From a virus (Duplodnaviria; Heunggongvirae; Uroviricota; Caudoviricetes), in IMG/VR virus record IMGVR_UViG_2585427757_000021: a stretch of DNA of 1,428 nucleotides; one strand, given 5' to 3'. Below are positions 608 to 1,428 of this stretch, piece by piece. Position 1 is the stretch's first letter, and every line of letters begins with the position of its first letter. The notes beneath the pieces were generated by a model. The model saw only the letters and a list, made by a program, of their open reading frames with translations. It searched no databases and was not told the origin of the DNA. The position numbers and the translations under genes were made by a program.

Positions 608-809
608 GTCTCACCCCCTGAATATTCGCGTTAATCATTCCGGCACGTTCTGCGAGTTCCTGTAATGATTCCCTTGTTGCGACAATGGCTTCATCTGGCA
701 GGTGGTAATTACACACCACGCGACCTTTATCCACATTGACCAGTAGCTGCCCGGTAAATTTCTCACGAAACTGAACGCGGTTAAGGTCGGTAAGTGACAG
801 GTTAATCAT
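597..809 (-). CDS. Small hypothetical protein, 70 aa (MINLSLTDLNRVQFREKFTGQLLVNVDKGRVVCNYHLPDEAIVATRESLQELAERAGMINANIQGVRHVQ)
   Basis: ATG at 809-807 preceded by AGGGGGAACACC (GGGGG plus 6 nt; complement of CCCCC at 816-820). The start overlaps the upstream gene's TAA (804-802) by 8 nt (minus strand reads CATGATTAA). Stop TAA at 599-597. Confidence 0.65.
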   Translation of the reverse strand: MINLSLTDLNRVQFREKFTGQLLVNVDKGRVVCNYHLPDEAIVATRESLQELAERAGMINANIQGVRHVQ

Positions 810-1005
810 GGTGTTCCCCCTGGCGAATACGGGCAGCGAATACCATCACGCAGCCATCAGGAGATTGCTGACGCGCTTCCTGTTCGCTGGTGGCCTCAAT
901 GGTAATCACGCGCGGTTGTGCCGTGCTCAGGGCGATAAAACGCCAGATGTATTTATTCAGGTTGTACGAGTCCCGCCCTTGCGGGTGTCTGGTATAATTT
1001 CTCAT
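802..1005 (-). CDS. Small hypothetical protein, 67 aa, first gene of the leftward operon (MRNYTRHPQGRDSYNLNKYIWRFIALSTAQPRVITIEATSEQEARQQSPDGCVMVFAARIRQGEHHD)
   Basis: ATG at 1005-1003 preceded by GAGG plus 5 nt (minus strand ...AGTATCGAGGCAGCT-ATG). Codon choice read by eye is enterobacterial-like (CTG, GCC, CGC, CAG, ACC). Lies about 100 nt downstream of the predicted leftward promoter. Stop TAA at 804-802. Confidence 0.65.
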   Translation of the reverse strand: MRNYTRHPQGRDSYNLNKYIWRFIALSTAQPRVITIEATSEQEARQQSPDGCVMVFAARIRQGEHHD

Positions 1006-1051
1006 AGCTGCCTCGATACTTCTGCTATCGTTGGTGGTTAGACGCCCTGCA

Positions 1052-1064
1052 TGTGTGCGAGCAC
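1052..1064. promoter_or_regulatory. Degenerate operator-like site TGTGTGCGAGCAC (GTGC-GA-GCAC, the core palindrome split by 2 bp)
   Basis: Fourth motif copy, in the ~100-nt leader of the leftward operon. Centre is about 48 bp from the 1102-1113 site, giving a roughly symmetric 48 / 23 / 47 bp spacing across the four sites. Confidence 0.3.
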
Positions 1065-1081
1065 TGCGGGGCGTTGCTTAA

Positions 1082-1101
1082 TTTGAGTGACAAAACTCAA
1101 A
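1082..1101. repeat. Inverted repeat TTTGAGT-GACAAA-ACTCAAA (7-bp arms, 6-nt loop)
   Basis: Perfect 7-bp inverted repeat directly abutting the 1102-1113 palindrome, inside the transcribed leader of the leftward operon. AT-rich and not followed by a U-tract on either strand. Confidence 0.4.
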
Positions 1102-1113
1102 CTGTGCGCACAG
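1102..1113. promoter_or_regulatory. Operator-like perfect 12-bp palindrome CTGTGCGCACAG
   Basis: Exact reverse-complement symmetry. Located immediately downstream of the leftward -10 box, at the predicted transcription start. Shares its TGTGCGCACA core with the site at 1126-1135. Confidence 0.55.
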
Positions 1114-1141
1114 ATTAAAATCATGTGTGCGCACATGTCAA
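1114..1141 (-). promoter_or_regulatory. Predicted sigma70 promoter for the leftward small-gene operon: -35 TTGACA (complement of 1136-1141), 16-bp spacer, -10 TTTAAT (complement of 1114-1119)
   Basis: Minus strand reads TTGACA-TGTGCGCACACATGAT-TTTAAT-CTGTGCGCACAG. The -35 is a perfect consensus and the -10 matches 5 of 6. One palindromic operator copy fills the spacer and a second starts immediately after the -10, over the expected transcription start. Confidence 0.55.
1126..1135. promoter_or_regulatory. Operator-like perfect 10-bp palindrome TGTGCGCACA
   Basis: Exact palindrome lying inside the 16-bp spacer of the leftward promoter. Its centre is 23 bp from the centre of the 1102-1113 palindrome, about two helical turns. 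Confidence 0.55.
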
Positions 1142-1144
1142 TAC

Positions 1145-1173
1145 TTAACATCTCATTTTTTTTGCTGTATTGT
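1145..1173 (+). promoter_or_regulatory. Candidate sigma70 promoter for the rightward RHH gene: -35 TTAACA (1145-1150), 17-bp spacer, -10 TATTGT (1168-1173, preceded by TG at 1166-1167)
   Basis: The -35 matches 5 of 6 and the -10 matches 4 of 6. It sits back-to-back with the leftward promoter, with the two -35 boxes 3 bp apart. The operator-like site at 1173-1182 overlaps the -10 and start region. Weaker match than the leftward promoter. Confidence 0.3.
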
Positions 1174-1182
1174 GTGCGCCCA
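1173..1182. promoter_or_regulatory. Operator-like site TGTGCGCCCA, 9 of 10 match to TGTGCGCACA
   Basis: Third copy of the motif, overlapping the candidate -10 and start of the rightward promoter, about 28 nt upstream of the RHH gene ATG. Centre is about 47 bp from the 1126-1135 site. Confidence 0.4.
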
Positions 1183-1209
1183 TAAAGTCCATTTAAGTGA
1201 GGTGCATCA

Positions 1210-1428
1210 ATGTCTAGCGGTAACACAAACAACAAATCAGCAAAGAAAAATATTCGATTCCCACATGAGCTTATAGATGGGATTGATGCCAGCGTTGAAC
1301 AAGAAAAATTAACTAATCCTAGTGCTAATTTTTCCGCATGGGTCTTACTGCCGGTAAACGCAAATCAAAAGACGACAGCGCCGCAAGGCCAAAGAGCAGG
1401 AGTAACCACCACCAGCGCCGTGGTGTAA
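1210..1428 (+). CDS. Putative ribbon-helix-helix (Arc/MetJ/CopG-like) DNA-binding protein, 72 aa, with a low-complexity C-terminal tail (MSSGNTNNKSAKKNIRFPHELIDGIDASVEQEKLTNPSANFSAWVLLPVNANQKTTAPQGQRAGVTTTSAVV)
   Basis: ATG at 1210 preceded by GAGGTG (1199-1204) with a 5-nt spacer; stop TAA at 1426-1428. The segment KNIRFPHELIDGIDASVEQEKL-TNPSANFSAWV fits the RHH beta-strand / helix A / turn / helix B pattern (compare Arc FNLRWPREVLDLVRKVAEENGRSVNSEIYQRV, recalled from memory). The C-terminal ~25 residues are Thr/Ala/Gln/Gly-rich and probably disordered. Fold assignment is by pattern recognition only. Confidence 0.7.
   Translation: MSSGNTNNKSAKKNIRFPHELIDGIDASVEQEKLTNPSANFSAWVLLPVNANQKTTAPQGQRAGVTTTSAVV

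Follow-up and report, generated by a model that had tools for sequence, protein, structure and literature searches.

The window analysed here is a stretch of 1,428 nucleotides from IMG/VR virus record IMGVR_UViG_2585427757_000021, numbered from its first letter. It carries five small leftward open reading frames (ORFs), the fifth of which is cut at the left end of the window, and one rightward ORF, with a 204-bp gap (1006-1209) between the two groups. The leftward operon begins with an icd-like gene, and the rightward ORF encodes a small protein of the YlcI/YnfO (DUF3950) family that we predict to be a ribbon-helix-helix (RHH) repressor (Table 1). Judged by its sequence and by the genes that surround its counterparts, the window is the regulatory region of a capsid-forming satellite of the phage-inducible chromosomal island (PICI) type, located in yifB/comM of Escherichia coli, and the gap holds the parts of a candidate repressor switch.

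E. coli chromosomes contain a stretch with 98.7% identity to the window. In a near-identical element (NZ_CM128597) the matching stretch lies inside an island of ~14.6 kb in yifB/comM, beside the ilv operon. As annotated there, the island reads int, alpA, ylcI (+) divergent from the icd-like gene (-), three small ORFs, DUF4222, DUF927 primase, ssb and ProQ/FinO, followed by major capsid, prohead protease, portal, connector, HNH, terS and terL. This is the gene set of the capsid-forming PICI (cf-PICI) family of ~10-15-kb islands (10.1101/2022.09.08.507074), with int, alpA, a primase and its own capsid, protease, portal, connector, HNH, terS and terL genes, and without tail or lysis genes. Induction by a helper phage and transfer have been shown in the literature for the cf-PICI EcCIEDL933. 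The exact 72-residue product of 1210-1428 is recorded once, on a 13.6-kb contig of draft assembly GCA_000714295.1, the int-alpA-ilv side of which is the same as in the near-identical element. Because a blastn search against 50,697 phage genomes gave only a 46-nt match, the element is not a catalogued phage.

YlcI-like relatives were gathered from one genome per species, which yielded 12 loci in 8 genera, and from IMG/VR, which yielded 64 loci. Across a dozen genera, ~50 related loci share the layout described below, and the regulatory region was tabulated in 53 distinct examples. Of complete E. coli genomes, between about a fifth and a quarter carry related modules. EcCICFT073, the prototype of Gram-negative PICIs, likewise has a YlcI-like and an icd-like gene as a divergent pair, with boxes of its own (GGTGTGGCCCAC, twice) in the layout seen in the window. 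Moreover, an identical repressor/operator cassette is found joined to different primases, backbones and neighbouring genes (BRO-N, AntA/AntB).

Table 1. Observed and predicted features of the gap and of the genes on either side (P_L and P_R, leftward and rightward promoters; O1 to O3, putative operators; SL, stem-loop)
Feature	Position	Strand	Description
icd-like gene (67 aa)	802..1005	-	first gene of the leftward operon; NF033153 phage_ICD_like, 70.4 bits (cut-off 25)
Predicted antisense promoter	990..998	+	extended -10, TGgTATAAT; inside the first icd-like codons
Predicted antisense RNA (~80 nt)	1004..1087	+	SL1 1005-1040, complementary to the icd-like AUG and Shine-Dalgarno; SL2 1041-1075 with T-rich tail, predicted terminator
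icd-like Shine-Dalgarno	1011-1014	-	GAGG
O1	1101..1114		14-bp box ACTGTGCGCACAGA, core palindrome 1102-1113; overlaps end of P_L -10 and predicted P_L start
P_L -10	1112..1117	-	TAATCT, 18-nt spacer; T1 in 35/39, A2 in 39/39 and T6 in 39/39 loci
O2	1124..1137		14-bp box TGTGTGCGCACATG, core 1126-1135; in P_L spacer, abuts -35
P_L -35	1136..1141	-	TTGACA, perfect; TTGAC essentially invariant in 39 distinct loci (one TTTAC)
P_R -35	1145..1150	+	TTAACA (promoter scan)
P_R -10	1168..1173	+	TATTGT, 17-nt spacer; TAnnnT hexamer equally placed beside O3 in relatives
O3	1171..1184		TGTGTGCGCCCATA, core 1173-1182 (9/10); overlaps P_R -10 and start; predicted autoregulation site
YlcI/YnfO-family (DUF3950) RHH gene	1210..1428	+	predicted repressor; intact allele 65 aa (WP_000094457.1)

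Boxes and promoters in the gap

The palindrome TGTGCGCACA occurs exactly at 1103-1112, where the symmetry extends to 12 bp (1102-1113), and again at 1126-1135; a copy with nine matches in ten, TGTGCGCCCA, lies at 1173-1182. With at most one mismatch allowed, the window thus holds three matches against an expectation of 0.09, and none of 200 dinucleotide shuffles reaches three. When the near-identical complete element was scanned together with its flanks (31 kb), the three box sites were the sole matches inside the element, and a fourth fell in host DNA near ilvY. An earlier note on this DNA, made from the sequence alone, had described four palindromes spaced 48/23/47. The two perfect copies and the imperfect one are borne out, and the fourth proves to be part of an RNA hairpin that is considered below. 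A repeat finder returns four 13-mers in register with start-to-start spacings of 49/23/47, which leaves the second and third of the spacings in that note standing and corrects the first.

The same note had proposed back-to-back divergent promoters, and these are recovered. The sole sigma-70-type match of a promoter scan is TTAACA-17-TATTGT on the + strand (1145-1173; P_R), and the TTGACA of P_L, read from 1141 to 1136 on the - strand, stands back to back with it. As the note had also stated, the nine-in-ten copy overlaps the rightward promoter, at its -10 (1168-1173). The -10 of P_L was not called by the scan and was placed by aligning 39 distinct loci on the -35. Conservation in these loci favors TAATCT over TTTAAT (1114-1119, 16-nt spacer), which is 2 nt away and is probably the hexamer meant originally; the description of one palindrome in the spacer and one at the start site is retained with the new placement. 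O2 fills the P_L spacer, O1 starts inside the -10 and covers the expected P_L start near 1105, and O3 overlaps the last three bases of the P_R -10 as well as the expected P_R start near 1180. Two boxes therefore sit on the leftward promoter of the icd-like/replication operon and one on the rightward promoter of the 65-aa YlcI/YnfO gene. This geometry suggests repression by occlusion combined with negative autoregulation.

The arrangement recurs among relatives. In the 53 regions, the boxes are 14 bp long with GTG at positions 2-4 and CAC at positions 11-13. An almost invariant GTCAA, the -35 TTGAC of the leftward promoter, supplies with its G the last base of one box. Another box is found 23 bp further left in 41 of the 53, and 29, with most classes represented, have a third one 47 bp to the right, where it touches a TAnnnT hexamer upstream of the RHH gene. 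O3 has one mismatch in the E. coli copies and is perfect in relatives from Rahnella and Klebsiella.

Palindromes can also act as hairpins in RNA or DNA rather than as protein sites, for example with O1 and O2 forming an attenuator or terminator. O1 and O2 are indeed mutually complementary (inverted repeat I2), and a terminator-like hairpin (1137-1122, - strand) is among the results of the scan. However, the boxes of other classes are non-palindromic direct repeats that are unable to pair (e.g., GGTGTGCACCCACC), and O2 lies upstream of the predicted P_L start, so that it would be untranscribed from P_L. We find a hairpin function for the boxes barely credible, and the reading of O1, O2 and O3 as operators is retained below.

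Some loci show variations on the layout. A duplication of the 23-bp unit at L025 2871-2926 (on a contig shared with L099) produces three left boxes. L029 has lost one 23-bp unit upstream of its RHH gene, so that O1 is fused with O2 and the leftward -10 is gone; the RHH protein of this locus carries E20G at a nearly invariant residue. The class with GTGTTTAAACAC boxes and the protein motif xYKG (L007, L033, L037, L050, L052, L053, L059 and L067) has an extra box 24 bp right of O2 and another near the gene, and its detected right-hand box is 73-80 nt from the start codon. In the leftward leaders of L003, L007, L033, L036, L043 and L055, O1 is followed immediately by a perfect 9-nt DnaA-box sequence, TTATCCACA. 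It is present in several operator classes (promoter-alignment rows ending ttatccacaggt) and is not found in the class of the window. Direct repeat D2 (TCGATACTT/TCAATACTT) and inverted repeat I1 were taken as chance occurrences. An 18-nt inverted repeat (83% complementary) links 1156-1173, in the A/T-rich P_R region, to 1232-1249, in the early RHH coding sequence; both arms would sit in a leftward read-through transcript from alpA, and this repeat, too, is probably due to chance.

Co-variation of the boxes with the predicted repressor family

The intact allele of the rightward gene matches NF041551 over its full length with 59 bits. The allele in the window scores 41.3 bits (cut-off 30) and covers only model positions 1-32 of 42. 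Likewise, the intact allele exceeds the cut-off of 25 for Pfam DUF3950 (PF13132) with 28.3, and the window allele, with 14.8, is below it. Because a search of PDB sequences with the family profile gave no match at E<=10, a comparison of folds was needed. The YlcI-like protein models as an RHH domain, with the beta-alpha-alpha fold of ~45 residues, and its N-terminal strand has the alternating polar, base-reading residues just before helix A that are expected of this class. Residues 5, 6, 11, 12 and 14 are variable, with positions 12 and 14 hypervariable (about 2 bits each), and I15-R16-F17-P18 is invariant. We take K12-K13-N14-I15-R16-F17-P18 to be the counterpart of Q9-F10-N11-L12-R13-W14-P15 in Arc, such that residues 12, 14 and 16 align with the base-contacting Q9, N11 and R13. 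The two hypervariable positions, 12 and 14, thereby coincide with base-reading positions of Arc.

The surroundings of the gene do not have the form of an RHH toxin-antitoxin pair. No co-transcribed adjacent toxin was found, and the profile searches returned no toxin family. The near-identical element has a convergent gene after the RHH gene; in the contig of the window, alpA is the next gene called, at a distance of about 570 bp and on the opposite strand.

The inner six bases of the boxes vary from locus to locus and define more than 15 classes (e.g., TGTGCGCACA, GTGCGGCCACAC, GTGTTTAAACAC, GTGTGCACCCAC, GTGTTAGGGCAC and GTGCACAAACAC), and each class has its own counterpart among the sequences that the protein shows at residues 10-14. 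SAKKN is found with TGTGCGCACA, SATKK with GTGCGGCCACAC, xYKG with boxes of the TTTAAA type, SAKKH with GTGTGCACCCAC, SATKG with GTGTTAGGGCAC and STTKG with GTGCACAAACAC. Mean box identity is 0.91 for pairs of loci that share the residue 10-14 motif, compared with 0.63 for other pairs. The Mantel correlation of the boxes with residues 10-14 is r=0.57 (0 of 5000 permutations as high), whereas that with residues 15-34 is r=0.09; when residues 15-34 are given, the partial correlation is still r=0.565 (again 0 of 5000). A search in the reverse direction agrees with this pairing: TGTGCGCACA-N13-TGTGCGCACA occurs on 20 of 2.9 million viral contigs in IMG/VR, and 20 of the 20 also carry the YlcI-like gene.

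Another factor might nonetheless bind the boxes, be it AlpA, a host transcription factor, or a primase or initiator that uses them as origin iterons. AlpA is the sole experimentally established regulator of these islands (PMC6092414), its identity correlates weakly and positively with that of the boxes (r=0.15; 53 of 5000 permutations reach this value), and repeated boxes at fixed spacing could be iterons. However, at least three unrelated AlpA types, as well as different primase families, are seen with the TGTGCGCACA class, one AlpA type is seen with at least four box classes, and box sequence differs among elements within one host species, which speaks against a host factor. In addition, the boxes are positioned exactly on promoter elements and their sequence tracks residues 10-14 of the RHH protein. 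AlpA was rejected as the box-binding protein since it co-varies too little with box sequence, and we regard binding by any factor other than the RHH protein as very unlikely.

The copy of the gene in the window differs from intact alleles by nine substitutions and two one-base deletions within 1348-1385. Its ORF leaves the family frame after about residue 46, so that helix B is lost, including the invariant D47, A48, C49, K52 and L53. Barring an error in the draft assembly, this particular island probably has an inactive repressor. Of the three single-base losses that distinguish the window from its relatives, two lie in short homopolymers, and the copy could be either a pseudogene or a product of draft-assembly errors.

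A conserved hairpin and a predicted antisense RNA

The fourth palindrome of the earlier note, offered there as a degenerate operator at 1052-1064, is the apical part and loop of a hairpin (1041-1075) that is conserved in structure and not in sequence. The distance between its GTG and CAC is variable (N6 to N8) and its loop changes independently of operator class, and we no longer count it among the operators. Its likeness to a box is raised in the window by a 1-bp deletion, in that one T at 1055-1057 is absent compared with all close relatives (GTGTTGCGAGCAC to GTGTGCGAGCAC). RNAalifold, applied to 36 distinct sequences, predicts 13 pairs, 8 of them with compensatory double changes. Pairing is kept in 96.4% of cells, compared with 84% in shuffled and 40-51% in slid alignments, and the covariation score is 0.42 versus 0.18, with none of 500 shuffles as high. 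When read on the + strand, the paired cells include 51 G.U or U.G combinations and a single A.C, and those 51 (about 11% of cells) become mismatches on the - strand. Because they pair on the + strand only, the hairpin appears to be selected in a rightward transcript, antisense to the icd-like leader.

The segment between the icd-like start codon and this hairpin forms another stem-loop (SL1 in Table 1), with a mean of -9.0 kcal/mol on the + strand versus -3.4 on the - strand. For the region as a whole the + strand is the more stable in 49 of 50 loci. The commoner variant of SL1 has a 7-nt loop with CCUC, the complement of the icd-like Shine-Dalgarno sequence. In the window, an 85-nt + strand RNA folds with -39 kcal/mol (z = -5.1) and its complement with -23 (z = -2.3), and in many relatives the T-rich run 3' of the hairpin is good. 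Inspection of 46 distinct upstream sequences reveals, in nearly all of them, a TAnnnT hexamer, often preceded by TG, at ~4 or ~10 nt before the CAT. The hexamer is kept although the overlapping Icd-like N-termini differ, and the start predicted from it lies 0-3 nt from the base of the first stem. On the basis of these features we propose a cis-antisense RNA, ~80 nt long and spanning about 1004-1087, by which the icd-like ribosome-binding site would be masked.

It is conceivable instead that no antisense RNA is made, and that the hairpin acts in the leader of the leftward mRNA, within which it lies, or serves as a fourth operator, given the GTG...CAC at its top. A T-tract that is weak in the window would fit such a role. 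We consider either function improbable in view of the G.U excess and the higher stability on the + strand, the T-rich tails on the + side in most relatives, the -10-like hexamer at the right distance upstream, and a loop that varies in spacing and is independent of operator class.

Searches of Rfam returned nothing over 1004-1087, and no C4 or isrK RNA, with the window at E<=10 or with 14 related loci at the gathering threshold; the matches obtained were limited to int-alpA RNA elsewhere, one tRNA and an ilv leader. The int-alpA motif (RF02996) scores above its gathering value on the - strand elsewhere in related islands (L003 7021-7088 and L007 6827-6892, and also L052 6042-6108 and L064 5137-5202), and the Rfam scan did not find it in the window's own contig (L079). 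The island also encodes an RNA-binding protein of the ProQ/FinO family (L001 11510-12040, - strand), and, as the predicted RNA resembles FinP in design (about 80 nt and two stem-loops over a 5' leader and ribosome-binding site), a dedicated chaperone/antisense pair is conceivable.

Annotation of the icd-like gene differs among elements. The short form of 67-68 aa is annotated in L100 and L101. The Prokaryotic Genome Annotation Pipeline calls a 116-aa Icd-like ORF in NZ_CM128597 that runs across both promoters, which we rejected as an over-extension through one extra T, the 67-68-aa form being annotated elsewhere. In CFT073 the annotated ORF of 157 aa overlaps the RHH gene and looks over-extended. 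Within the leftward operon the icd-like gene overlaps the next by 8 nt (802-809) and the following pair overlaps by 11 nt (597-607). The last pair overlaps by 41 nt as listed (362-402), or by 11 nt with the later start annotated in relatives. These overlaps suggest translational coupling, through which a block at the icd-like gene could silence the genes behind it.

The proposed switch and its relatives

On the evidence of sequence comparison and modeling, we think it likely that the window holds a repressor switch in which an RHH protein, its boxes and an antisense RNA keep the satellite silent. Very probably the RHH protein binds the three boxes and silences the replication genes, and the antisense RNA probably provides a second lock. 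In the scheme that we infer, from binding and repression through both start sites and the existence and role of the RNA to de-repression by a helper, P_R would express the small YlcI/YnfO protein as the binder of the three 14-bp boxes. Occupation of O1 and O2 would exclude RNA polymerase from the P_L operon, that is, from the icd-like gene, the replication genes behind it (DUF4222, DUF927 primase and ssb) and probably the packaging genes. O3, weaker by one mismatch, would mediate negative autoregulation of P_R. A constitutive antisense RNA of ~80 nt, reaching from the icd-like start codon through the hairpin, would base-pair with any P_L transcript that leaks through, over its entire 5' leader, Shine-Dalgarno sequence and AUG, and would block icd-like translation. 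Repression would likely be lifted by an anti-repressor protein or by AlpA-driven transcription that runs convergently through the repressor gene into the operon; that the latter, AlpA-dependent route overcomes the lock is our working guess. The earlier suggestion of a repressor-controlled, autoregulated switch operated by the product of 1210-1428 is, as far as computation goes, well supported by the architecture, the co-variation, the RHH fold and the reverse search. Its further suggestion that the switch is bistable finds no such backing, as no second, opposing regulator was found at these promoters. The note had mentioned neither the probable antisense RNA nor the frameshift in the repressor allele of the window.

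Several observations weigh against this interpretation. The confidence of the monomer model is moderate (pLDDT, predicted local distance difference test, 74), and the N-terminal strand is unformed in the monomer. The loci compared are related and thus not independent, and co-inheritance of the tightly linked operator and gene inflates any correlation between them, although linkage alone would not readily explain the contrast with residues 15-34 and with AlpA. As regards the RNA, the T-tract is weak in the window (GCTTAATTTG), the terminator scan did not call the hairpin, and the antisense -10 overlaps coding sequence, such that part of its conservation may be protein-driven. The window allele looks defective and yet P_L is intact, from which it would follow that the protein is dispensable here, that it is supplied in trans, or that the assembly contains errors. 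Finally, overexpression of AlpA alone induces EcCICFT073 and EcCIEDL933 (PMC6092414; 10.1101/2022.09.08.507074), and therefore the RHH protein is not the only control and is perhaps not the dominant one.

The sufficiency of AlpA overexpression (PMC6092414) lends weight to a more modest role, in which the RHH protein binds the boxes but acts as a local autoregulator, as a toxin control for the division inhibitor Icd-like or as a barrier to incoming satellites of the same type, with AlpA-driven read-through from upstream deciding the life cycle. The apparent inactivation of the window allele beside an intact P_L, and the combination in L029 of a missing P_L -10 with E20G, would also be consistent with this role, and many specificity classes are expected for immunity types. 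Conversely, O1 and O2 cover the core of a promoter that has a perfect -35 and heads the whole replication operon, and the arrangement is kept across both classical PICIs and cf-PICIs. We therefore judge the accessory role unlikely and prefer repression of the operon by the RHH protein. A broader proposal must be more tentative. The YlcI/YnfO proteins could be master repressors of Gram-negative PICIs and cf-PICIs in general, with more than 15 co-evolving specificity (immunity) classes, a FinP-like antisense RNA, and AlpA overriding the lock, for instance by convergent transcription. We see this as a serious possibility that falls somewhat short of probable.

Each part of the proposed switch has counterparts in known systems. 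The immI region of phage P22 has two RHH repressors, Mnt and Arc, divergent promoters Pant and Pmnt, and the sar antisense RNA. By the predictions made here, the window shares with it a small RHH repressor gene divergent from the target promoter, operators over core promoter elements, autoregulation and a short cis-antisense RNA that like sar covers the ribosome-binding site of the downstream gene. It differs in having one RHH protein with three boxes instead of two RHH proteins, in its targets, which are an icd-like gene and a satellite replication operon rather than an antirepressor, and in belonging to a PICI instead of a phage. The profile search of PDB sequences mentioned above detected no homology to Mnt or Arc, and the operon starts with icd-like and replication genes where a P22-type region would have its antirepressor.

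Similarly, in the established cases of P1/P7 immI (c4-icd-ant) and the P4 CI RNA (PMC10111431), as in the window, an Icd homologue comes first in the operon and an RNA, in the window a predicted one, gates the leader and ribosome-binding site. Unlike the RNA of P1/P7, which is processed from the same strand, that predicted here is a cis-antisense RNA from the opposite strand; moreover, there is no ant gene, and a protein repressor is added. The Rfam models for C4 and isrK detected no C4/CI-type RNA in the leader.

Dual control by an RHH repressor and an antisense RNA of roughly 50-80 nt is reminiscent of CopG (RHH) and RNAII acting on repB of pMV158, and of FinP/FinO acting on traJ. Like FinP, the predicted RNA has two stem-loops, and the element also encodes a ProQ/FinO-family protein, the gene for which is lacking in classical PICIs such as EcCICFT073. 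The RHH gene is divergent here, whereas CopG is encoded by the first gene of the operon that it controls. By the searches made here, neither P22 immI nor P1 immI nor CopG with RNAII is a homologue of the proposed switch. Stl from the pathogenicity islands found in Staphylococcus aureus (SaPIs) and Rpr of Gram-positive PICIs are larger repressors of the helix-turn-helix type, not RHH proteins. The YlcI/YnfO gene resembles theirs in lying next to int, in being divergent from the replication/packaging operon and in a specificity that is variable between islands (PMC6092414). De-repression by a helper protein has been shown for Stl.

Only the activator AlpA is named in the literature on Gram-negative PICIs, which calls it 'unclear' whether a global repressor exists (PMC6092414). 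Later papers describe a variable gene of unknown function beside alpA (10.1101/2025.02.11.637232) and, for some islands, Bro-zone proteins as well as immunity RNAs of the C4/isrK type (PMC10111431). A 2026 survey lists YlcI/YnfO only as an accessory 'prophage-associated protein' (PMC13612085). Our literature searches for YlcI, YnfO and DUF3950, for RHH proteins with PICIs and for Icd-like proteins with satellites found no functional study. The mechanism proposed here is of a well-known kind; what may be new is a candidate for the repressor not yet identified in Gram-negative PICIs. The predicted antisense RNA, which is absent from Rfam 15, would represent a new family of cis-antisense RNAs of Enterobacterales satellites. 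If the RHH/operator pairs are functional, DUF3950 would gain a function, the silence of these widespread islands would be explained, and the AlpA induction pathway would become directly testable. The pairs would also constitute a natural set of orthogonal small repressors and operators whose specificity residues can be read.

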